DNA of 64,000 nt from Pirellulales bacterium (GCA_963733035.1 CAVTBU010000005.1:1152001-1216000), one strand, 5' to 3'. Shown: positions 9,384 to 20,710, numbered from the stretch's first letter. The notes: generated from the sequence alone by a model not told the origin. Program-made: numbers and translations.

Positions 9384-10656
9384 ATGGAATGGTTAACCAC
9401 GGCCTACTGGGCGGTTGTCGTGGGCGCTTCGGTTTTTTCGCTGCTGCTCACGTGGCAAGCGTTCGAACATCGGCGCGACGCTGCGCAGCCGCTCGAAGCA
9501 GCTCCCCGGAAACCATCGCAAGCACATTCGCATGTTTGTGCCTTGCAAGGATCTCGACGGCGACTTGGATGCGAACCTGAAGCCGCTCTTCGAGCAGGAT
9601 CAGGGGGATTACGATATCGTCTTTGTCGTGGAAAGCGAAAGCGATTCCGCCGCCCCGGTCGTTCGCCGCCTGATGCGGCAATATCCGGGGATTCCATCAC
9701 GACTCGTGGTGGCAGGAATCTCCACCGATAGCGGTCAAAAGGTTCACAACCTGATGGTCGCCACGGAGGACCTGCCCGCGAACGTCGAGATTCTGGTGTT
9801 TGTGGACGCCGACGTGCGGCCACCACGCAACTGGTTGCAACGGCTCACAGGGCGGCTGAACAACGTCGCGGTTTGTACCGGCTACCGCTGCTTCGTGCCG
9901 AAACGCAACACGTTCGCCAATCTCGCGCTCTCGAGTATCAACAGCGCCGTCGTGCCCATCATGTTCCCGGGCAAGCACCATCTGATCTGGGGAGGTTCCT
10001 GGGCGATCACGCGTGAGCTGTTTCAAGTCAGCGGCCTGCGGGAAGAATGGCGTGGAACGCTGAGCGACGACCTGATTGCCACCCGCGTGATGGCGCGCGT
10101 CGGGCAACGGGTAGCGGCCGAACCGATGTGTATTCTGCCGTCGCCGCTGGACGTCAATCTGTTTGGCATGTTGAGCTTCATTCGCAGACAGCTGATCATC
10201 GGAAGGTGCTATACGGCGGTCCATTGGTACGCGTTGCTGTTTGGCTGCGGGATGATGCAGTTCATTTTTTGGGGGAGCCTGGCGGCCGCGATGTGGGGCG
10301 GCATTTCGGCGGCTGCCTGGACCTGGCAACCGGCCACTGCGGTTGGAATTCTGTATGCGCTGCATATCGGCCGCGCTCAACTCCGTCATGCCGCGGCGCG
10401 GTGCTACCTGCGTGATCGCCGGGACGATTTGCGCAGCGTCCATCAGTTCGATACCTGGTTCGGCCCGCTGGCGGGCGCCCTCGGATGGCTGGGCCTGCTG
10501 GCCTCGGCCTTCAGTCGGCGAATCGTCTGGAAGGGGATTACTTATCAGATGCGTCCCGGGGGAGAGATCGTGAGCATTGTGCGGCCGGATGGCAATCGGA
10601 CGGTCGCCGCGATCTGTCGGCCGGCGGCGTCGCTTGGGACTCGCAAAGCTGCTTGA
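9384..10656 (+). CDS. Membrane glycosyltransferase, ceramide glucosyltransferase/HpnI-like; apparent frameshift near 9480
   Basis: N-terminal TM in the 9384 frame. PCKD, GQKVHNL, FVDAD, WGGSWAI, LSDD, FIRRQ and C-terminal IVWKGITY in the 9415 frame. Confidence 0.85.
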
Positions 10657-10694: not shown

Positions 10695-12141
10695 ATGCGC
10701 ATCGTTTTGTGGGATACGCGAAAGCTGGATGTGGCCAAAGATTTCGCCGGGGGCTACGGCGTCGGCCAATTTCCCGGTGGGGGCGGAGTGGGCGGTCGCC
10801 TCGTTCGTCACTTTTTCAAGCGCGACTACCGACCCACGGCGTTGATCTTCGCCTATCTCGCGGCGATCTTCCGCAAGCTTGGACACAAGGTCGAGTACTG
10901 CGCTCGACGACGTGCCGGCCGGCGCCGACGTGTACGTTTTCAACCCGTCGCTCATCACGGTACCGCTCGAACGTCAGGCAATGGCCCAGGCGCTAGCGCA
11001 AAACCCCGGATGCAAGGTGCTGGTCACCGGGGCGGTCGCGCATTCGATGAGCGAAGCCTTTGAAGGGCTGGACGTGACCATCGTTCGCGGCGAAGGCGAA
11101 CAGCTGATGTGGAAACTGGACGACGTGCTCAATGCCCCCACTCGTACGGTCGACGTCGGGAAAGTGGACGACCTCGATCGCCTGCCGTTCCCCGACTGGT
11201 CTCTGTTTGCACATAAGAAGTTCCGCATCGGGTTTGACTTCACGCAGTTCCCCACCGCGTTGATTCAACAGAGTCGAGGTTGCACCCTGAAGTGCAATTA
11301 TTGCCCGTACATAATCATTGAGAATTCAACCCGCGTTCGCTCGCCCGAAATGGTAGCCGCGGAAATGCGGGCCGGCGTGCAGATCTACGGGTTCCGCTCG
11401 TTCAAGTTTCGCGACCCGTTGTTTGGCGTGGACCGCAAGAAGATCTTCCGGTTGGCCGAATTGATCGGGGCGCTCCCCAAGAAGATCGAGTTTTCGATTG
11501 AAAGCCGCATCGACTTGTTGCGCCCCGACGTGCTCAAGGTATTGCGCGAAGTAGGCCTGACGAGCATCACGGTCGGCATCGAAACGCCTTCGGAAGAGAC
11601 TCTCAAACGTTATCACCGGGCACCGATTCGCGACGACAAACAGCGCGATTTCGTGCTCCTGTGCCGCTCCTTGGGCATTCGCACCGTGGCCGGCTTCATG
11701 ATCGGTTTTCCGGAGGACACGGAGAAGACCATCCTCAACGTTCTCCGCTATGCGAAGGCGGTGAATCCGACATTCGCCAACTTCAACGTCGTGACCCCCT
11801 ACCCCGGCACGGAGTTCTACGAGGAAATCAAGTCGCAAATCGCGACCTTTGATCCATCGCAATACACCGTCTATACGCCGGTGCTGAAGTACCGCAACTT
11901 GACCTCAGAACAAGTGGCCGAACTGCACGCCAAGTGTTTTCTCAGTTACTTCTTCCGTGGACGCTGGTTCTGGGCCAATGGTCCCGTCGTGTGGCCCTGG
12001 TTGCAGAAGTTCGGCCTGAAACTGCCACCGATTCCGGAAACCGCCACGCACGCGCACGTGGGTCCGCCAAAACCGCACACGGGACTGAACGTCCTCGACG
12101 GCGGAGATGTTCCGTCGTCCGACCAGCGTAACGTGGCCTAA
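10695..12141 (+). CDS. Radical SAM protein with B12-binding-like N-terminus (HpnJ/BchE-like); apparent frameshift near 10899
   Basis: MRIVLWDTR start after GAAAGGA; SRGCTLKCNYC (CX3CX2C); VGIET, FMIGFPEDT and TPYPGTEFY. Confidence 0.88.
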
Positions 12142-12153
12142 CCCCGCAGGCTT

Positions 12154-12504
12154 TCAATAGAAGAATGTCGTGCCGATCACGACCAATGCCGCAACCACGG
12201 CAAACCAGGTGATCGACACAGGTGGCGGCTGCTGGCGGAACTTCAGCACGCAGCCCAGCAGCACGAGCGAGAGTACCGCCGCCACGAAACCGCTGAAGTG
12301 CAGCAGCCGCGCGAACAGGCGTGGTGCGTCGGCACCCGGGCGACCGCCGAGGGCCAGGAAAATCAGGCCAGCCATCGCGCCGCAGAGTACGGTCGTGATC
12401 ACCGACATCGTCCAGGCCACCGTTAGCGCATCGGCTGCCCTGGTTTCAGCGCCAATGGCTCGCGATCTTTCCAGCGGCTTTTGCCGCGACTTCTTTCTGG
12501 CCAC
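12154..12504 (-). CDS. Small membrane protein with about 3 TM helices
   Basis: AAGGA RBS and GTG start, a basic N-terminus, then three hydrophobic segments. Confidence 0.65.
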   Translation of the reverse strand: MARKKSRQKPLERSRAIGAETRAADALTVAWTMSVITTVLCGAMAGLIFLALGGRPGADAPRLFARLLHFSGFVAAVLSLVLLGCVLKFRQQPPPVSITWFAVVAALVVIGTTFFY

Positions 12505-12655
12505 AACCGCAGTTTCCTTTGAGAGCGCTCGGTCCCGCCGACTGTCATCATAGGCGCGACGGCGCAAGCTCGCCAAGCGGCACGAAAATGGCCCGCGAAA
12601 CTCAAGTAGCTTCGCGGGCCAGATTGGTACGGGCGACGTGTCGAGGGACGATTGA

Positions 12656-13123
12656 TTAACGTCCCCAGGTGGTGACGATCAGGTCGCCGCAGTGTTTGAA
12701 TGCCACGCGAACGCTGAAACCGCAGCACCATTCGTATTCCACGACGTCGCGGCCCAGAAATCCCGACCCGCAGCAGATTTTCGGCTCGCCCTCGCAGCAG
12801 GCGGGCAAGCAAACCGGCACGTCCGTTTCGCATCCGGTGCAGGGGTCCTTGACCTTGAGCGTGATTTCCGTTGGCGGTTTGCAACAGCCGCAGCAGAGCT
12901 TCGGTCCGCGGTGGCGATAGGTAATGCAAGGTTTCGGGCAGCACGCCGGTTCGGGCGTGCAGCAGCTCGGTTCCGGCTGGCCGCAATCGCTGGTTGCCTT
13001 TGACAGGCTGGTCAACTGGGCATCCGCGCGGCGCAGGGTGCGGGCATGGGCATCGTCAGCAGCGGCCCAGGCGAGCGTGGCACCTACGGCGACGGCGATC
13101 AACAAACTTCGTTTCAGCAACAT
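12656..13123 (-). CDS. Secreted cysteine-rich protein (20 Cys, 7 CC pairs)
   Basis: AGGAG RBS; signal peptide MLLKRSLLIAVAVGATLAWAAA; mature region includes CCTPEPACCPKPC...CCGCC...VPVCLPACC...EWCCGF. Confidence 0.8.
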   Translation of the reverse strand: MLLKRSLLIAVAVGATLAWAAADDAHARTLRRADAQLTSLSKATSDCGQPEPSCCTPEPACCPKPCITYRHRGPKLCCGCCKPPTEITLKVKDPCTGCETDVPVCLPACCEGEPKICCGSGFLGRDVVEYEWCCGFSVRVAFKHCGDLIVTTWGR

Positions 13124-13513
13124 CGATGTCTCCTAAGTCTTTCTCTCTCTTGGCAAGATCCGTTTACCGCCTCAATCGGTTACCCACAAAGTTCCCACAT
13201 TTTCTGTTTTCCGCAAGGTCCTCCCAAGTCCCGCAATCGACTCATCAAGCACAACGTCTTTCTAGAAAATAGCTTACTGCCGTCGTTGGGCGTTAATTTT
13301 GTCCTTGCTGGAACTTGCAAGTCCGGCTTGTTAGGGGGCAGTGAGGACGACTTTTGCCGAGTTCTGGGATGTGACCTAGATTTCCCAAGGCGGCGCCACG
13401 CTCCGCGCACGTCTGGACGGGGGCCGCCGTGCGCCAGGTCTCATTTCCCCGTGGGCGGATGCTATGGCGGCAAAACTCGCGTTGTCGCCCTTGATGAAGC
13501 ATTGGGTTTGAAT

Positions 13514-16039
13514 GTGTCGGTCGACCTCTCAATACCGCTGAAAGCCTTTGGACGCCCGTTGGAGGAGTCGATCCGCGAGTTGCGCCGCGGCTACCAGTCG
13601 GTGACGGATTGCCTGGAGCAGGCCCTGACCGACTGCGAGCTCCGAGGCAGCGAATTGGCCGATTGCCGACGGCAGCTGGCCGAGGCACGTCGCAGTCTGT
13701 CGGAATGCGAACGGCAAATTGCCGAGCGAACGCGCGCGGAAAACGAATTGACCAACCGTTGCAACGCGATCAAGAAGCAACTTGACGAGAAGTGCGCGCA
13801 ACTGGCCCAGGCGAACGAGCGAATCATCCACATTCAGGGCGAGTGCACGCAAGGGAAACAGCGGCTGGAAATGGCCGCCGAACAAAGCGAACACCTGCGG
13901 GCACAGATTGCTCGCCTGGAAGCCGACCACCGCGAGAGTCGCGAAGAGCTTTCACAACTTCGAGGTCAGTTTGCCCCGTTGGCCGAAGCCGCCGCAGAAG
14001 CAGCCCAGTTGCGCGGCCAGCTAGCCGCCGCGCAGGCCGACTTGGAGCGACTCCGCGAACAATCGGCCAATGCCAGCGACAACGGCGAACTCCAGACGCA
14101 ACTCGCGGCGGCTCAATCCGAACGCCAGGATCTTCACCAGGAGCTCGAATCACTGCGGCGCCGCGCCGCCGAATTGAACGAAACGCTTGCCGAACAGAAA
14201 CGCCAGTCCGACGCCGAACGGGACCGTTGGAGCGAGGAACTGCGGCACATGCGGCAAGTTCTGGAACGGCAAACCGACGCCTGGACACAGCGCGCCACAC
14301 AGGCCGCCGACGACGCGGCAGCGTTGGCCGCAACCCGCGAGCGACTCGCACAAGCCGAAGCGGAAATTGCTCAAGGCAAAGAACGCCTGCAAGTCCAGTC
14401 GGAACAGGGCGACGAGTTCCGCCAGGAAATCACACGGCTCGAGTCGCAACGTGAGTCCGCCAGAGAAGAACTCGCGCAATTGCGGGCGCAATTCGGTCCC
14501 CTTTCGGAAAACGCGGCTGAAGCGGCGCGGTTGCGTGGCGAACTGGCGGCGGCACAGACCGAAATCGCGCGGCTCCGCGACGAATTGACCAGTCCGGCCG
14601 AGGCGGCGGAGCTGCAAGAAAAGCTGTTCTCGATGCAGAACGAGCGGCAGCAATTGCAAGGCGAGTTGGAATCGCTGCGCCGCCGGGCCGGCGACCTCTC
14701 GGACGCCCTGGACGAACAAAAGCGGCTGACCACGACGGAACGTGAGCAATGGAGCGACGAGCTGCGACACGTCCGTGAATCGCTCGACCGGCAGTCGGCG
14801 GCGTGGGCCGAAAGGGGCGATCAGACGGCTCACGACGCGCAGGCCCTGGCCGCGGCCCGCGAACGTGCGATCCAACTCGAGGCCGATATCGCCCAGGCGC
14901 ACGACCGGCTGCAACTCCAGACGGAACAAAACTCGCAACTTCGCGAAGAGATTGCCCGACTCGAATCGCATCGTGAAGCGGCTCGTGAAGAGCTGTCGCA
15001 GCTCCGCGGTCAGTTTGCGCCGCTCGCGGAAAACGCCGCCGAGGCCGCCCGGTTGCGCGGCGAACTGTCGGCAGCGCAGGGAGAAATCGAGCGGTTGCGG
15101 GCGCAGGTCAGCAGCCCGGCGGAAGCGGCGGAAATCGAACAGCAACTCGCGGCCAGCCAAACCGAACGTCAGCACTTGCAGGGCGAACTGGAAGCCTTGC
15201 GCCAGCGTGCCGGCGACCTGGCGGAGCAATTGGCCGAACAGCAACGGCAGGCGGCCGCCGAACGAGACGCCTGGGGGGAAGAGCTGCGGCATCTTCGCGA
15301 AACGCTGGAGCGGCAGTCGGAAACCTGGGCGGCTCGATCGGGCCAGGCCGACGACACGGCCGCCGTCGTCGAATTGGCAGCGACCGCCGCCCGGCTCAAC
15401 GAGGCTCAATCCGAGTTGGCCCGAAGCCGCCAACAGTTGCAGGAGCAAATTGCCGCCAACGACCAACTACGCAGCGAAATCGAGGCGTTACGGGCCAACG
15501 GACAGGCCGCGCAACAGGAGCTTGACCAACTGCGCGGGCAAGCAGCGCCGCTGGCCGAAGACGGCGCGGACAGCGAAACAGTGCGCGGCCAGTTGGCTGC
15601 CGCGCAGGCGGAAATTGCGAGACTCAACGAGCAGCTTGTCGACCTGCCGGACAGGGACTCGCTAGAAGAACGCATCGAGGCAGCCGAAAACGAACGCCAA
15701 CAACTCGAGAACGAGCTCGATCTGCTGCGACATCGCGGCGCGGAATTGGTTGAGCAGTTGGCCGAGCAAAAACGGACGGCGGCATCCGAGCGGGAGAGTT
15801 GGAGCGAGGAATTGCGCCAATTGCGGAAGGCCGTGGAAATGCAGTCCGAGGCGCTTGCCCATCGCGGCAGCGCGTCGCCGGCCGCGCCCGCTGCCCCAGT
15901 CGGAAACGTAACGGAACGACCAAGTCCGCCGACCCCGGTCGGATCGCGTGCGGACGACAGCGTGCTTGGCTCGGTGATGGAGCAGTTTGAGTCGCTACAG
16001 AAAAACAAGGTTCGCAAGTTCGCGAATCCAAAACGATAA
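13514..16039 (+). CDS. Long coiled-coil protein with four ~174-aa internal repeats
   Basis: E/Q/R/A/L heptad composition with recurring QLRGQFAPLAE and W(S/G)(E/D)ELR(H/Q) motifs. The start (GTG at 13514) is uncertain. Confidence 0.85.
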   Translation: MSVDLSIPLKAFGRPLEESIRELRRGYQSVTDCLEQALTDCELRGSELADCRRQLAEARRSLSECERQIAERTRAENELTNRCNAIKKQLDEKCAQLAQANERIIHIQGECTQGKQRLEMAAEQSEHLRAQIARLEADHRESREELSQLRGQFAPLAEAAAEAAQLRGQLAAAQADLERLREQSANASDNGELQTQLAAAQSERQDLHQELESLRRRAAELNETLAEQKRQSDAERDRWSEELRHMRQVLERQTDAWTQRATQAADDAAALAATRERLAQAEAEIAQGKERLQVQSEQGDEFRQEITRLESQRESAREELAQLRAQFGPLSENAAEAARLRGELAAAQTEIARLRDELTSPAEAAELQEKLFSMQNERQQLQGELESLRRRAGDLSDALDEQKRLTTTEREQWSDELRHVRESLDRQSAAWAERGDQTAHDAQALAAARERAIQLEADIAQAHDRLQLQTEQNSQLREEIARLESHREAAREELSQLRGQFAPLAENAAEAARLRGELSAAQGEIERLRAQVSSPAEAAEIEQQLAASQTERQHLQGELEALRQRAGDLAEQLAEQQRQAAAERDAWGEELRHLRETLERQSETWAARSGQADDTAAVVELAATAARLNEAQSELARSRQQLQEQIAANDQLRSEIEALRANGQAAQQELDQLRGQAAPLAEDGADSETVRGQLAAAQAEIARLNEQLVDLPDRDSLEERIEAAENERQQLENELDLLRHRGAELVEQLAEQKRTAASERESWSEELRQLRKAVEMQSEALAHRGSASPAAPAAPVGNVTERPSPPTPVGSRADDSVLGSVMEQFESLQKNKVRKFANPKR
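13800..15860 (+). repeat. Four degenerate intragenic tandem repeats, period 522/522/528 bp
   Basis: The TGG codon of the W-x-(E/D)-ELR motif falls at 14228, 14750, 15272 and 15800. Confidence 0.9.
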
Positions 16040-16075
16040 GGCGCCGTCCCCAAATCAGGCGAGAGTGAGGCAACC

Positions 16076-17233
16076 ATGCGATCAAGCGACTCCACCAGTC
16101 ACACCAATCTTCTGTCGCGACTGCCGGAATGGTTCGGCGGTCTGCTGGCGACCGCCTCGGGAGCCACCCGGGCCAGGAAGCACGACGAGGCGGCGCTCGA
16201 AGCCGCGGTCGTGGCGGCGGTTGAACAGGATGACGAATCACCGATGACGATTGAAACCAGTCACGAAGTACAAAGCGTGGTCGACGAAATGCTCTCGCAA
16301 AGTCGCTACGCGCTGCTTCTGCGACCACAGTTGATCGGCAACCTTTCTCCGGAACAGTTGGCCCGCACGCGTGCCGCATTGGCCGACGGGATGTGCCTGG
16401 TTCCCGAGGGGGAGGTCGTGCTTCGTAAAACCTATCGGACCGAAGGCGACCAAGAGGCGCCTGACGGTCCCCTCTTGCGACTCAACGCCTACTATCTCGA
16501 CCGCTATCCCATCACCAACGCTCAGTACCACTGCTTTGTCGCCAGCGGCGGATATGAGCAGATGTCGATCTGGGATCCGGAGATTTGGGCCGCCCTGCTC
16601 GACTTCGTCGACAGCACGGGTCACCCGGGCCCGCGTTTTTGGCGCAACGGCCGCTTCTCCCGCGGCGAAGAACATCACCCCGTGGTGGGCGTGAGCTGGT
16701 ACGAGGCGGTCGCCTACGCTCGCTGGGTCGGCAAGCGACTGCCGAGCGACGCCGAATGGGTCAAAGCGAGCAGTTGGCCGGTCTTGATTCCCGGACATCC
16801 CCTGATGCTCAGGCGGTATCCGTGGGGCGAGGCCATGGACCGCTCGCGGGCGAATTTGTGGGGTTCGGGCCCGGGACGCACCGTAAGCGTTCACGAGTTT
16901 CCCAGTGGCGTTAGCGTCGGTGGCGTGCAGCAACTCATTGGCAACGTCTGGGAATGGACGGTCGACGCGTTTTCGTTCCCCGATAGCGACGCGGGCGCCA
17001 GCGTACAAACCAAAATGAAGAGTCTGCGGGGCGGGGCGTTCGATACGTATCTCGATTGCCAGGCAACGTGTCACTTTCAGAGTGCGGACGTCGCACTTTC
17101 GCGGAAACACAACATTGGTTTCCGCTGCGCGATTAATCTTAGCGACCTGGCTTCGCGGCGCGACGATGTCAATGAGGAGTCGAGCGCGGCGGAAGAACCG
17201 TCGCAAACCCCGATTGCGGAGAACCAGTCATGA
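16076..17233 (+). CDS. FGE-sulfatase (SUMF1/formylglycine-generating enzyme fold) domain protein
   Basis: YPITNAQY, HPVVGVSWYEAVAYARWVGKRLPSDAEW, RYPWG, GNVWEW, RGGAF and NIGFRC. Confidence 0.92.
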   Translation: MRSSDSTSHTNLLSRLPEWFGGLLATASGATRARKHDEAALEAAVVAAVEQDDESPMTIETSHEVQSVVDEMLSQSRYALLLRPQLIGNLSPEQLARTRAALADGMCLVPEGEVVLRKTYRTEGDQEAPDGPLLRLNAYYLDRYPITNAQYHCFVASGGYEQMSIWDPEIWAALLDFVDSTGHPGPRFWRNGRFSRGEEHHPVVGVSWYEAVAYARWVGKRLPSDAEWVKASSWPVLIPGHPLMLRRYPWGEAMDRSRANLWGSGPGRTVSVHEFPSGVSVGGVQQLIGNVWEWTVDAFSFPDSDAGASVQTKMKSLRGGAFDTYLDCQATCHFQSADVALSRKHNIGFRCAINLSDLASRRDDVNEESSAAEEPSQTPIAENQS

Positions 17234-18141
17234 ACCGCGGCGTTGCATTGGAATTGGATTCACTGCGTCTGGCGCATTATGGCAACCAGATTTCGTGCCT
17301 GATTTGTGGCGAGGGCAACACGCCCGACGCGGAGTCCTGCCGGAACTGCTATGCCCCGATGATTCTGGCTCACCAGGCGCAATCGAAGGCCACCAAGCCC
17401 ATCATGTTTGGTGCGCTGGGACCGAGCGGTGTCGGCAAGACCGTCTATTTAGGAATGTTGCTCGACATGCTCTCACGGCAGCCCAAGCACTTGCAATTGG
17501 CGGCCCGGGGCGGGTTTTCGGTAACGCTTCAGCACAGCACGCTGGCGGCGCTTTCCAAGTGCGAGTTTCCGACGAAGACGCCGAATGAACCGGACCGCTG
17601 GAATTGGGTGCATTGTCAACTGCGCAGCCCCAAACAGCGCCAGCCCATTGAAATGGTGCTTCCCGACATGGCCGGCGAGGCGTTGTTCGAGGAAGTCGAA
17701 CATCCGCATTCCTATCGGGTGATTCACGCGCTGCTCAGCCGCTGCGACGGCGTGATGATTTTGATCGACGGCACAAAACTGCAGTCGGGCTCGATCGATG
17801 AGGATTACTTCACCATGAAGCTCCTCAGCCATCTGACGGAGCTACAGACCGACATCCGAAATCCGTGGTCTTCGCGGCCGGTGGCACTGATCTTCAGCAA
17901 AGCAGATCAATGCGAATCGTGCTTCGAGGACCCGGCCGCCTACGCGAAGCGCCATGCACCCGGATTGTCGCGCATTTGCCAGCAGAAGTTTCAGCGTCAC
18001 CGCTTTTTTGCGGCGGGAGTTGCCGGAGCGTGCGCCACTCGCCCCGTGCGCGGAGGCGGACAGCAAAAGGTTCCGCTTCGCGTCGAGCCTCGAGGAATCA
18101 TCGAGCCGTTTGAATGGCTCGTCGACAGCTTGCGTTCGTAA
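17230..18141 (+). CDS. TRAFAC-class P-loop GTPase (double-GTPase-2-like) with N-terminal Zn ribbon
   Basis: CLIC...CRNC; G1 GPSGVGKT; G3 DMAGE; G4 SKAD; C-terminal PRGIIEPFEWL. ATGA overlap with the upstream gene. Confidence 0.85.
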   Translation: MNRGVALELDSLRLAHYGNQISCLICGEGNTPDAESCRNCYAPMILAHQAQSKATKPIMFGALGPSGVGKTVYLGMLLDMLSRQPKHLQLAARGGFSVTLQHSTLAALSKCEFPTKTPNEPDRWNWVHCQLRSPKQRQPIEMVLPDMAGEALFEEVEHPHSYRVIHALLSRCDGVMILIDGTKLQSGSIDEDYFTMKLLSHLTELQTDIRNPWSSRPVALIFSKADQCESCFEDPAAYAKRHAPGLSRICQQKFQRHRFFAAGVAGACATRPVRGGGQQKVPLRVEPRGIIEPFEWLVDSLRS

Positions 18142-18195
18142 CTTGCGTGGTCAGACCGATGCATACGTTTTTGACTCGCCGGGACTGGCCCGACG

Positions 18196-19566
18196 GTGAG
18201 CCGACGCCGAGACAGACCTTCAGCGAGACAGCCCGTGCTTATAGAACAAGCCGTTTTCACATCCGCCAAAACCGACCGGGCCGAAGGCTACCAACTGCTG
18301 AGTCGGAGCCCGAACCTCACCGAGGCCGACGCGCGCGAGATATCCTTGTGGGCCCCGTCGCACGGTTCGCTGCTCGAACTGCCGGGCGAACGCTCGAGCG
18401 CGAATTTCTTTCAATTGTCGAGCGGTTCGTTTTGCATCTCGCGGACGACCCGCGCCGGCGCGGAGTATAGCGGTCGCGGCGAATCGATCTACACGCAGTT
18501 CCTGGTCGTACCGCCGGACTTGATGACGAAGTTTGCGAACAATCCATTTGCAATTCTGCGAGCCGCGGCGGCCAGCGGCAGTCTCTGCGTCCACGAGAAC
18601 GTTCCTGAGACGCTCGATCCGCTGCACTTGGGCGGCCGAGCGCCGGTCGTCGACTTGGGGCTGATTGCGCAGCTGGCCCGCGATCCTGGTCCGGCCGCCA
18701 TGGCCACGCTCGTGCAAGCGGCGTTGGCCAGCGATCGCCTGGCGATCTATTCGAAAACGCCGTGTGAACAGCTGATCGCGGGACTGTTTGACGTGCTGCC
18801 GGTCGAATGTCGCCCCGGCTTTTCGTTCAGCACGGGTCTGAAATATTCGCCCAGCCGTCCGGTTCGATTGCTGGCCCTGCCGCCTGATGAATCAACGTGG
18901 CGCTTCGTGGGTCGCCAGGGCGTCACGCTGGTGCGTCTCGACGACGTGTTGTCGACAAATGTTGGTTGGGAAGGCTGGGCCGCCTGGATCGCGGGGGTTC
19001 TTCATTCGGGAAAACTCTCCGTGCTGGCCTCGGAGCTCGAGCAATCGCGCCCTGGGCTCAGTTGCGACGATTTGGATCAGCTAGGCGATGCATTGCAAAG
19101 GGCACTGGGGGCAGGCCACGCCCAGCCGAACCCTGGGTCCAAGCCAAAGCCTGCCAAACCGGCACGCAAAAAGCGTCGCACGGACACCCACTCGCAACAG
19201 CGCGCCGACCAGGCTCATCCGGCGCATCAGTCGAGCGTGATGGTCGAAGACGCGGGGCGAGCCAAGCAGCTGGATACGCTGGCGGACAAGTTGGCCGAAC
19301 AGCCGGCCGAAATCCTGGAGATGCTCGAACGAATCGACGACCTGGTATTCGCCGCCATCTCCGGAGACACCAGCGCATTGGCGGAACTGGAAGTGCTGTG
19401 GCCCCTGACCGCTTCGGAACTCGAGCCCGAGCTGGTTGAGCAAACCCGCGAACAGTACCTGCGTTGTACGCTGGCCATCTGCGGCGACTTCTCGGAAGGA
19501 GAATCGCGCAGCCCGGAACGAGCATTGGCGGCGGTCGACGTGCTGTGCGTACTGTTTGAGGAATGA
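18196..19566 (+). CDS. GAP1-N2-like domain protein (GTPase-associated protein) with C-terminal helical domain
   Basis: EQAVFTSA...GYQLLSRSP...SRTT..GAEYSGRG..IYTQ and later LPVECRPGFSFSTG, matching the GAP1-N2/GAP1-M pattern as recalled; adjacent to the GTPase. Confidence 0.75.
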   Translation: MSRRRDRPSARQPVLIEQAVFTSAKTDRAEGYQLLSRSPNLTEADAREISLWAPSHGSLLELPGERSSANFFQLSSGSFCISRTTRAGAEYSGRGESIYTQFLVVPPDLMTKFANNPFAILRAAAASGSLCVHENVPETLDPLHLGGRAPVVDLGLIAQLARDPGPAAMATLVQAALASDRLAIYSKTPCEQLIAGLFDVLPVECRPGFSFSTGLKYSPSRPVRLLALPPDESTWRFVGRQGVTLVRLDDVLSTNVGWEGWAAWIAGVLHSGKLSVLASELEQSRPGLSCDDLDQLGDALQRALGAGHAQPNPGSKPKPAKPARKKRRTDTHSQQRADQAHPAHQSSVMVEDAGRAKQLDTLADKLAEQPAEILEMLERIDDLVFAAISGDTSALAELEVLWPLTASELEPELVEQTREQYLRCTLAICGDFSEGESRSPERALAAVDVLCVLFEE

Positions 19567-19570
19567 GCCG

Positions 19571-20710
19571 CTAGCCGCAGGCGTCGATCAATTCCCAAAA
19601 GCTGTCGAACAGATAGTCGCTGTCGTGCGGGCCGGCCGACGCTTCGGGATGGTACTGCACGCTGAAGGCCGGCAACTCGCGGTGCCGCACCCCTTCGATC
19701 GTCTGATCGTTGAGATTGCGATGCGTTACTTCCAGGCAGGCCGGCAGGTTGTCCTCGCGAATGGCAAACCCGTGGTTTTGCGAGGTAATCTCCACGCGGC
19801 CGGTTTGCAGATTCTGCACCGGTTGGTTCGCTCCACGGTGACCAAACTTGAGCTTAAACGATTCGGCTCCGCACGCCAGGCTCAACAGCTGATGCCCCAG
19901 GCAGATGCCGAACACCGGGGTCTTACCCAACAAACTCTGAATCGTGGCAATCGCATACTCCAGCGGTTCAGGATCGCCGGGGCCGTTGGAAAGAAACACG
20001 CCGTCGGGCCGGAGCGCCAGCACCTCGCTGGCGGTGCTTGTGCCGGGTAGCACGGTTACCTGGCAGCCCTGATTACAAAGGTGGCGGGCAATGTTCCATT
20101 TCATCCCGTAGTCGAGTGCCACAATGTGCCGCTGTTGGCCAGATTCGGCACGTCCGGTCGGCTCGCCCGGCACGGGCAACTTCGACCACGCGCTGAGCTG
20201 CTCCGTCCAATGGATGGCCTGTGTTGGCACGACTTCACTCACCAGGTCGCGGCCCACCAAACCGGGGCTGCTCTTGGCCTTGGCCACCAGACTCGCATCG
20301 TCGAGATCCGTGGTCGACAGCACCCCCTTGAGGGCGCCGTGCTGGCGGATGCGGCGAACCAGGGCCCGGGTGTCAATGCCCGTCATACCGACGACCCCAA
20401 ACTTCGCCAAATACTCTTCGAGTCGGCCCGCCGAGCGAAAGTTGCTGGCAACGTTACTGCGGTTGCGGACCACGAAGCCGGCGAGGTGGGGGCGTGCGCT
20501 TTCGACATCCTCTTCGTTGACCCCGTAGTTACCGATTTCGGGATAGGTCATCGTGACGATTTGGCCGCGATAACTGGGGTCCGTGAGGATTTCCTGATAC
20601 CCGGTCATCGACGTATTGAAGCAAACTTCGCCGTCGACTTCTCCTTGGGCACCAAAAGATTGACCGGTGAAAACGGTTCCGTCTTCAAGGGCGAGTTTAG
20701 CGACTTTCAT
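19571..20710 (-). CDS. carA: Carbamoyl-phosphate synthase small subunit
   Basis: LALEDG, GEVCFNTSMTGYQEILTDPSY, LSNGPGDP, GICLGHQ and QYHPEASAGPHD. Confidence 0.98.
   Translation of the reverse strand: MKVAKLALEDGTVFTGQSFGAQGEVDGEVCFNTSMTGYQEILTDPSYRGQIVTMTYPEIGNYGVNEEDVESARPHLAGFVVRNRSNVASNFRSAGRLEEYLAKFGVVGMTGIDTRALVRRIRQHGALKGVLSTTDLDDASLVAKAKSSPGLVGRDLVSEVVPTQAIHWTEQLSAWSKLPVPGEPTGRAESGQQRHIVALDYGMKWNIARHLCNQGCQVTVLPGTSTASEVLALRPDGVFLSNGPGDPEPLEYAIATIQSLLGKTPVFGICLGHQLLSLACGAESFKLKFGHRGANQPVQNLQTGRVEITSQNHGFAIREDNLPACLEVTHRNLNDQTIEGVRHRELPAFSVQYHPEASAGPHDSDYLFDSFWELIDACG

Follow-up and report, generated by a model that had tools for sequence, protein, structure and literature searches.

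A four-gene DO-GTPase/GAP1-N2 operon of Pirellulales with a predicted longin-DENN-like regulator and a coiled-coil partner

What does a GTPase switch control in a bacterium that encodes it together with a coiled-coil protein? The question is raised by a four-gene operon in a 64,000-nucleotide stretch of DNA from a Pirellulales bacterium (GCA_963733035.1 CAVTBU010000005.1:1152001-1216000), which we call the window. The four genes are co-oriented on the + strand at 13514-19566 and encode, in order, a coiled-coil protein, a protein of the FGE (C-type-lectin-like) fold, a zinc-ribbon GTPase of the DO-GTPase class and a GAP1 protein. A first-pass annotation, made from the sequence alone, had taken the locus for an uncharacterised, cytoplasmic and possibly domesticated system in which the FGE fold senses, the GTPase/GAP1 pair switches and the coiled coil is a scaffold or filament. 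Our best explanation, to which we give about an even chance, is that the operon is a chromosomally fixed, vertically inherited Pirellulales GAP1-N2/DO-GTPase switch that controls a coiled-coil scaffold; that the FGE fold would sense and the coiled coil would be the scaffold we infer.

The four genes form one conserved unit. The ORF coordinates agree with the tight spacing described for the window at first pass: 36 bp between the coiled-coil and FGE genes (16040-16075), a 4-nt ATGA overlap between the FGE and GTPase genes (17230-17233) and 54 bp between the GTPase and GAP1 genes (18142-18195). In the best 80 loci, which we used for the synteny count, FGE was found in 77 and GAP1 in 79, and the gene order was always FGE-GTPase-GAP1. 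In the three loci without FGE, no more than 70 nt separate the GTPase from the beginning of the contig, and the one without GAP1 lies on a contig that ends just past the GTPase. FGE and GTPase still share an ATGA-type 4-nt overlap in 62 of 72 loci, and this retention speaks for translational coupling.

To follow the inheritance of this unit, we used an evenly drawn sample of 201 Pirellulales genomes, 147 of them of high quality, and an evenly drawn sample of 301 genomes of the phylum. Close orthologues of the GTPase occur in 125 of the 201 Pirellulales genomes (92 of the 147 high-quality ones), nearly always as a single match, with two matches in 5 of the 125 carriers. Presence follows families: the GTPase is found in 15/15 genomes of family f1, 15/15 of f6, 11/12 of f122 and 11/13 of f118, and in 0/15 of f15, 0/14 of f120 and 0/3 of f123. 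The closest loci belong to Pirellulales, Pirellulaceae and Thermoguttaceae. Across the phylum sample, GTPase matches at E <=1e-10 are confined to 7 of the 301 genomes. Five of these belong to family f39 (26-30% identity), and the other two are the genome of the window and a second member of its order. No close orthologue was found among the 15 genomes of f19, the one other family of the class in that sample. The Pfam GAP1-N2 model matches 26 of the 301 genomes, scattered over many families and often in frames of 800-1100 aa. GAP1-N2 systems are therefore patchy across the phylum, and this operon is a lineage trait of Pirellulales with a few clade-level losses. In the window's own genome there is a single GAP1-N2 locus and a single DO-GTPase locus, both being this operon, so that the single GTPase seen at first pass is the only one of its class there. 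A general link to budding in cells that lack FtsZ, which had also been proposed, is unlikely, with GTPase orthologues in 0/15 genomes of f19 and likewise in none of those of f15 and f120.

Conservation and flanks fit this family-coherent pattern. Median identities to the window at 16 near loci are 80 for carA, 80 for the GTPase, 65 for FGE and 56 for GAP1, and at 16 distant loci 72, 59, 53 and 40, respectively. The GTPase is thus about as conserved as carA among near relatives, and this, with inheritance that is family-coherent and nearly always single-copy, favours the idea that the system is a domesticated one. At 33 loci around GAP1 homologues, a recurrent arrangement of radical SAM gene, transmembrane (TM) protein, Cys-rich protein, operon and carA (on the opposite strand) is found in the window's family and partly beyond it, and these flanks are lost in distant relatives.

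Outside the order, other layouts are found. Three f39 loci (L160-L162, from genomes G254, G270 and G316) carry two tandem DO-GTPase genes with 24-29% identity to the window GTPase; tblastn detected no FGE gene in the f39 loci, and their layout is the classical double-GTPase form. Six further GAP1-N2 loci of the phylum were scanned with custom profiles, and the set of FGE, GTPase-like, GAP1 and coiled-coil genes appeared only in L169, from another family of the phylum. There (L169:2244-11397), an FGE-domain protein of 585 aa is followed by a 989-aa frame in which DO-GTPase2 matches the P-loop faintly, then by a GAP1-N2/GAP1-M protein of 413 aa (4-nt overlap) and finally by a 1099-aa coiled-coil protein, which lies downstream rather than upstream. 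L169 thus brings together the same four kinds of gene, arranged in another order. The conserved C-terminal Q-F motif of the Pirellulales coiled-coil proteins, described below, was not seen in the C-terminal residues inspected of the L169 coiled-coil protein.

To what class does the operon belong? DO-GTPases and GAP1 were defined as parts of "GTPase-centric" systems by Kaur, Burroughs, Iyer and Aravind (2020, eLife 9:e52696; PMC7159879), whose main text reads the class as an NTP-gated conflict system, names inactive enzyme domains and superstructure-forming coiled coils as typical effectors, and notes that planctomycete GAP1-N2 systems carry FGS domains. Because of this last point, the combination of parts in the window is already catalogued and not new, a point missing from the first-pass annotation: the operon is a planctomycete, FGS-bearing form of the GAP1-N2/DO-GTPase class. 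Its family assignments all stand. Pfam places the GTPase in DO-GTPase1 (53.5 bits) and DO-GTPase2 (50 bits; cut-off 27), the GAP1 protein in GAP1-N2 (66.3 bits; cut-off 24) and the FGE-like protein in FGE-sulfatase (146.1 bits; cut-off 23.3), and the coiled-coil protein is recognised by its composition. The genes co-occur in other genomes, and the two that had been expected to match the DO-GTPase and GAP1 families do so above the Pfam cut-offs.

As in the systems of Kaur et al., the window has a DO-GTPase with a zinc ribbon at its N terminus and with Glu following the Walker B DxxG, a GAP1 directly downstream of it with an N2 domain, a putative M domain and a possible counterpart of the C domain, and an FGS/FGE-fold protein in the operon. 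Unlike them, it has one GTPase, one zinc ribbon, no protein with rapidly evolving FNIII repeats (in place of which the main text gives FGS domains for planctomycetes) and, in this copy, no TM component; two N-terminal zinc ribbons are usual and paired GTPases occur in 38% of systems according to the same main text, neither being obligatory (PMC7159879). A coiled-coil partner with a conserved putative docking helix is also unlike the planctomycete form as the main text presents it, in which both mentions of "coiled-coil" concern other systems. Finally, order-wide vertical and syntenic inheritance here stands against variable effectors there. Our literature search, which covered its sources in part, returned no experiment on DO-GTPase/GAP1 systems, and the available text of a 2026 preprint that mentions DO-GTPases likewise contains none on this operon.

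The GTPase looks like an intact switch. The GPSGVGKT, DMAGE and SKAD motifs seen at first pass are all present, as are the two CxxC motifs, which make up one N-terminal CLIC...CRNC (CxxC...CxxC) zinc ribbon. Across 77 GTPase sequences, C23, C26, C37 and C40, G64, G69, K70 and T71, D146/G149 and K224/D226 are invariant, and at least 80% of 79 sequences have the Glu that follows Walker B (DMAGE). The 77 sequences also share a long invariant stretch, KTPNEPDRWNW, whose position suggests that it is a switch region. A structural model of the protein (pLDDT 81.8, pTM 0.82) matched small GTPases generally in Foldseek (Arl13B, Der, Rac1, MglA, Rab5, Arf1), with no clear nearest family. In two relatives FGE and GTPase are read through in one frame, at L103:6846-8909 (687 aa; same genome as L134, G406) and in P0005 (723 aa). 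Either case could be explained by a true fusion or by a single-base error in the assembly, and one of them comes from a 1.68-Mb contig. We accepted no candidate as a Rosetta-stone fusion. Among the long frames at 9 further GTPase loci, 8 are alternative-frame artefacts of G+C-rich DNA and only that of G406 runs in one frame, and the 4 matches of a search for longer proteins comprise the P0005 read-through and 3 GTPase-GAP1 chains with garbled linkers that resemble frameshift merges, none of which we counted as a fusion.

An AlphaFold2 model of GAP1 built with 48 orthologues (mean pLDDT 87.5, pTM 0.70) divides the protein into two alpha/beta domains, a disordered basic linker and a separate C-terminal domain of five predicted helices, the last in agreement with the helical domain of about 100 aa noticed at first pass. 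The first domain corresponds to GAP1-N2, which matches 48 of the 48 aligned orthologues; the second corresponds to GAP1-M, which in the window falls below its cut-off (17.5 bits; cut-off 24) and matches 38 of the 48 at E <=10, with a best value of 8.9e-7. In the model, residues 12-150 run in the order b1-b2-a1-b3-b4-b5-a2-a3, which we take to be the canonical longin order. When the model was searched against the PDB with Foldseek, longin-DENN GTPase regulators filled 9 of the 10 top ranks (FLCN/FNIP2, DENND1B-Rab35, DENND1A and C9orf72/SMCR8; E 9e-5 to 1.3e-3, probability 0.57-1.0), the other being the type VI secretion repressor TagF (PDB 9t0n, 6iz8; E 3.7e-4). VIA-align gave Z 8.3 against DENND1B (rmsd 5.1, 240 aligned, model residues 12-299), Z 8.3 against DENND10 (rmsd 8.1, 252 aligned) and Z 8.2 against DENND1A, values near 8 being middling on the tool's own scale. 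TagF followed at Z 6.7 (rmsd 5.1, 237 aligned). Taken separately, residues 12-150 aligned with isolated longin domains at Z 5-6.1, among them a Lokiarchaeota longin domain (Z 6.1, rmsd 3.9, 125 aligned), and residues 155-293 aligned with the folliculin DENN (Z 5.0, rmsd 4.1, 130 aligned). Because the best structural rows form one family and span both domains, we predict that GAP1 N2 and M together form a longin-DENN-like two-domain module. Neither the PDB profile search nor a relaxed Pfam scan gave a DENN or longin sequence match for GAP1, and no d-DENN domain was recognised in it.

The main text of Kaur et al. never mentions longin, DENN, roadblock or TagF (PMC7159879), and among the titles and abstracts that we found none describes GAP1 as DENN-like, nor did we find a paper naming TagF and DENN together. 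According to the text available to us of a 2012 survey (PMC3521125), DENN and d-DENN had at that time been seen only in combination, within the DENN module, which the survey treats as a regulator of eukaryotic Rab GTPases. The predicted longin-like domain also carries an invariant loop, E90-x-S92-x-R94-G95, between b4 and b5. By analogy with longin-domain Arg fingers, which are given as established for SMCR8 and as proposed for FLCN and Nprl2 in the part of a preprint available to us (bioRxiv 10.1101/2021.04.13.439632), Arg94 is a candidate Arg finger. The helical C-terminal domain, in comparison, is dispensable: it is missing from 18 of 73 GAP1 ORFs, with no match elsewhere in those loci, and no Pfam model matched it. 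Short GAP1 proteins of about 240-350 aa that lack it are encoded at L087, L097, L100, L107, L113, L117, L118, L120, L122, L129 and other loci, at several of which carA directly follows GAP1.

The FGE-like protein is more readily seen as a binding protein than as an enzyme. Among proteins of solved structure it is closest to EgtB (100.6 bits), in the C-terminal half of that enzyme: the alignment covers EgtB residues 129-365 only and begins at the last helix of the DinB domain. Pfam finds no DinB family in the FGE-like protein. EgtB carries its iron-binding histidines on that N-terminal DinB domain. Scores against the NCBIfam equivalog models for EgtB, SenA and OvoA are far below their cut-offs (112/360, 86/420 and 44/400, respectively). 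When the protein is aligned to human FGE (chain 1y1e_X), the first Cys of the GGSYMC....C pair becomes Thr324, conserved as Thr in at least 90% of orthologues, and the second becomes Cys328, which is not conserved among 63 orthologues, most of which have another residue there. The alignment nevertheless contains 43 invariant columns, and a helix at about residues 66-100 is conserved. The protein thus lacks the catalytic residues of both the FGE and the EgtB families, and since the Cys pair and the DinB half are both missing, binding is likely to be its job.

Membrane attachment differs among orthologues. The first-pass claim of a cytoplasmic system free of TM segments holds for the window, where the FGE-like protein, GTPase and GAP1, the three proteins checked, have none (maximal Kyte-Doolittle 19-residue means of 0.83, 1.18 and 1.31). 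It fails for 23 of 63 aligned FGE-like proteins, which have a 19-residue window of TM grade (mean hydropathy of at least 1.6). In the six top scorers and the other N-termini inspected, this hydrophobic stretch is an N-terminal helix followed by an Arg cluster, and therefore the FGE domain would face the cytoplasm. The window copy keeps a weak remnant only of the segment.

The coiled-coil protein varies in length but is constant at its C-terminal end. In the window, its length (about 841 aa) and repetitive build are as first described, with four protein repeats of period 174-176 aa and 44-64% pairwise identity. Tandem Repeats Finder detected no DNA tandem repeat in 13000-16100, and the repeats are visible at the protein level only. 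Searches of Pfam, NCBIfam and PADLOC gave only compositional coiled-coil matches, and the protein encoded upstream of FGE is rich in A, E, L, Q, R and K. Across orthologues the length ranges from about 230 to 890 aa, most having about 230-600 aa, and the expanded form is that of the genus to which the window belongs and of its nearest relatives (L054-L057, L060). The reading frame is open over 13046-16039, with start candidates at GTG 13514 or at TTG 6 and 12 nt upstream. Translation of its 468-nt upstream extension (13046-13513, +), which covers intergenic sequence and part of the divergent gene, is very improbable; because ATG 13046 falls inside the divergent gene 12656-13123 (-), the reading of about 840 aa is the sensible one.

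At the C terminus, D-P-V-L-x-S-V-M-A-Q-F-E-x-L-Q-K-D stands between a preceding Pro/Ala-rich linker and a basic cluster. This tail motif (V..SV..QF..LQ) is present in 57 of the 72 loci with a complete FGE ORF, and in the 57 sequences its Q and F are invariant and its V, S, V, L and Q at least 90% conserved. Because its hydrophobic positions share one helix face and several of its residues are acidic, the tail is probably a protein-docking helix rather than a membrane anchor. It is also retained in loci whose GAP1 lacks the C domain, so the GAP1 C domain is not an obligate receptor for it. The coiled-coil tails of the short-GAP1 loci carry a variant, AQFAKLQKDVAQRR.

Which protein, then, would hold the tail? 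We folded four chains together, each with its alignment: GAP1 (residues 12-310), the full-length GTPase, the FGE-like protein (residues 55-362) and, as the scored partner, a coiled-coil tail of 48 residues. The tail docked with a score of 0.41 (runs 0.26, 0.41 and 0.44) against 0.00 for the best of 3 controls, with contact agreement of at least 54% among runs and partner pLDDT of at least 56, which counts as weak support. In calibration, 116 of 157 solved complexes passed the mark, as did 2 of 215 mismatched pairs; the passes at scores <=0.60 came from only 18 of those 157 complexes and from both mismatches, and the calibration was built on single-chain pairs whereas the run here had four chains with custom alignments. 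When the FGE-like chain was swapped for an unrelated protein, with GAP1 and GTPase still present, the score fell to 0.00 and the tail pLDDT to 35. It is solely because the score vanished on this replacement that we name the FGE-like protein as the receptor that would hold the coiled-coil tail.

Given these results, two narrower explanations can be set beside a scaffold switch. The coiled-coil gene could be a mere syntenic neighbour of a functional FGE-GTPase-GAP1 trio, since tblastn with the window coiled-coil protein finds no match in 25 of the 80 best loci and the distant L169 module has its coiled-coil gene at the opposite end, behind GAP1. We consider this quite unlikely, because a coiled-coil ORF with the same C-terminal motif stands directly upstream of FGE in the 57 of 72 loci, even where the other flanks have changed, and a coiled-coil gene accompanies the other three parts in L169 too; the docking result, weak as it is, speaks on the same side. 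Even less probable, indeed close to dismissible in our view, is that the FGE-like protein has kept an enzymatic activity, that of a sulfoxide synthase or an FGE-type oxidase acting on a peptide, with the coiled-coil tail as its substrate and with GTPase and GAP1 controlling or chaperoning the modification. The strong similarity to FGE-sulfatase and EgtB, the invariant columns and a weakly supported docking that is lost with the FGE-like chain would all suit such an enzyme, but the FGE cysteine pair is absent, the DinB half that forms the EgtB iron site is missing except for its last aligning helix, the NCBIfam scores fall far under their cut-offs, and the tail motif offers neither Cys nor His to modify.

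The weightier alternative is that the operon is an NTP-gated conflict system, for immunity or programmed death, that became fixed in Pirellulales: the FGE fold would be the sensor of an invader molecule and the coiled coil a superstructure-forming effector, with a threshold set by GAP1 and the GTPase. Membership in the DO-GTPase/GAP1-N2 class speaks for it, as does the reading of that class, with inactive enzyme domains and superstructure coiled coils as typical effectors, in the main text of Kaur et al. (PMC7159879). GAP1 (median 40% identity at distant loci) and the coiled coil (230-890 aa) diverge far faster than the GTPase, whole families have lost the module, and GAP1-N2 is patchy elsewhere in the phylum. 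Against this, the locus is nearly always single-copy, syntenic and family-coherent over the order, beside carA. The signature of a conflict system, a constant core with effectors that vary between close relatives, is not what we observe; throughout Pirellulales the same four parts occur in the same order, and the effector swapping that defines the class is not seen here. In the four operon proteins Pfam detects neither an FNIII sensor nor any domain of a nuclease, protease or pore, and PADLOC matches the coiled-coil protein by composition only (LmuB, JetC) and the GTPase by one weak DolB match (E 0.042), with no match for the FGE-like protein or GAP1; that there is no recognisable toxic effector had been noted at first pass. 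FNIII families likewise had no Pfam match when the four proteins and 10 neighbours were scanned, and no mobile-element genes are found among the neighbours examined. It is because of the inheritance pattern that we consider a cell-organising role likelier than classical mobile defence, which we think possible but on balance doubtful. The conflict reading stays live because of the whole-family losses, the fast-evolving GAP1 and the elastic coiled coil.

Several of our results also weigh against a scaffold switch. The module is missing from 76 of the 201 genomes of the order, including 55 of the 147 high-quality ones, and is therefore not essential. Kaur et al., who discovered the class, defined it as one of conflict systems (PMC7159879). 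The rapid evolution of GAP1 and of a coiled coil that expands and contracts would also fit a component in an arms race. The DENN likeness of GAP1 is at the level of the fold only, with a middling Z of 8.3 and no sequence match. Lastly, a docking pass at the score that we obtained is oftener wrong than right unless the guess was likely beforehand, and the calibration comes from pairs. The pattern of inheritance points to a role in cell organisation (envelope, polarity or surface structure) rather than to a mobile defence island.

Under the scaffold-switch explanation, the parts could work together as follows. The zinc-ribbon GTPase would be the switch, and GAP1 would bind it through the longin-DENN platform and set its nucleotide state. 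It could do so as a GAP, in which case Arg94 in the beta4-beta5 loop is the candidate finger, or it could be a GEF like DENND1 for Rab35. As an adaptor, placed at the cytoplasmic face of the membrane by an N-terminal anchor in about one third of orthologues, the FGE-like protein would capture the coiled-coil protein by its C-terminal helix. The place or the time of scaffold assembly would then depend on the binding and hydrolysis of GTP.

Known systems resemble the operon in part. GAP1 shares with eukaryotic longin-DENN regulators (the DENND1A/B-Rab35 GEFs and the FLCN-FNIP2 and C9orf72-SMCR8 GAPs) a predicted two-domain fold over residues 12-305, for which Foldseek gave probabilities of 0.97-1.0 and VIA-align Z 8.2-8.3 across about 240 residues, and an invariant Arg in a longin-domain loop, and it is encoded beside a partner of small-GTPase fold. 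It differs from them in having no detectable sequence similarity, no recognised d-DENN and a different helical C domain, and its partner GTPase lies outside the Rab, Arf and Rag families. TagF, like GAP1, is a bacterial protein with this predicted two-domain fold, and we know of no GTPase pairing for it. The MglA-MglB polarity switch of Myxococcus xanthus likewise encodes together a small GTPase and a regulator of the longin/roadblock superfamily, and MglA is among the Foldseek matches of the operon GTPase model, with no sequence relationship to MglA-MglB. Unlike GAP1, with its predicted longin-DENN module, MglB is a single roadblock domain, and the mgl operon is not known to include an FGE-fold protein or a dedicated coiled-coil gene. 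With EgtB/OvoA and FGE, the FGE-like protein has in common the C-type-lectin-like FGE fold; unlike them it has neither a DinB iron domain nor the FGE Cys pair, and it scores far under the equivalog cut-offs.

The features of the operon are collected in Table 1. Its neighbours, among those examined, are core and metabolic genes (carA, radical SAM, KAS and epimerase), as first reported, and G+C is even across the locus. A scan of 12900-19800 for promoters and terminators was uninformative: it gave no promoter-like site, and its 9 terminator-like sites compare with an expectation of 9.2. Divergent from the coiled-coil gene lies a gene for a 155-aa protein (12656-13123, -) with a signal-peptide-like N terminus and many Cys (CC/CxxC), and adjoining it one for a 140-aa predicted membrane protein (12154-12576, -), both without a Pfam family. 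Homologues stand in the same place in 26 and 19, respectively, of the 53 loci with enough upstream DNA for this check. We considered these two as fifth and sixth parts of the system and rejected them, as such counts indicate lineage synteny and not a core component. Upstream of the operon there are also a radical SAM gene (10879-12141, +), which is syntenic with the operon in the window's family and some other families, and a family-2/21 glycosyltransferase gene (9415-10656, +).

Table 1. Genes, predicted GAP1 domains and conserved tail motif of the operon, in window coordinates.
Feature	Nucleotides	Strand	Residues or length	Remarks
Coiled-coil gene	13514..16039	+	~841 aa	start GTG 13514 or TTG 13502/13508
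Conserved C-terminal helix motif of the coiled-coil protein, DDSVLGSVMEQFESLQKNKVRK	15953..16018	+		alignment of 57 sequences
FGE-fold (C-type-lectin-like) gene	16076..17233	+	385 aa ORF	
DO-GTPase gene	17230..18141	+	303 aa ORF	
GAP1 gene	18196..19566	+	456 aa ORF	GTG start
GAP1-N2, predicted longin-like alpha/beta domain	18229-18645		12-150	AlphaFold2
GAP1-M, predicted DENN-core-like alpha/beta domain	18658-19110		155-305	AlphaFold2
GAP1 disordered basic linker			310-352	AlphaFold2
GAP1 five-helix C domain	19252-19563		353-456	AlphaFold2

It is tempting to speculate that the operon is a bacterial counterpart of a Rab/Arl GTPase with its GEF or GAP and a golgin-type tether captured by a short C-terminal element. 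We think this unlikely; if it were true, a bacterial tether-like operon would organise membrane invaginations or polar or surface structures in Pirellulales, and GAP1 proteins generally would be prokaryotic relatives of the DENN module, which in the available text of the 2012 survey belongs to eukaryotic Rab regulators only (PMC3521125). If GAP1 is truly a longin-DENN protein, bacteria hold a GTPase-regulator architecture that has so far been tied to eukaryotic membrane traffic. The value of the locus lies in its predicted DENN-like regulator, its conserved putative docking tail and its compactness as a test case, and the Pirellulales form, being small, without obvious toxic parts and kept order-wide, offers a practical entry point to a class that has been predicted since 2020.

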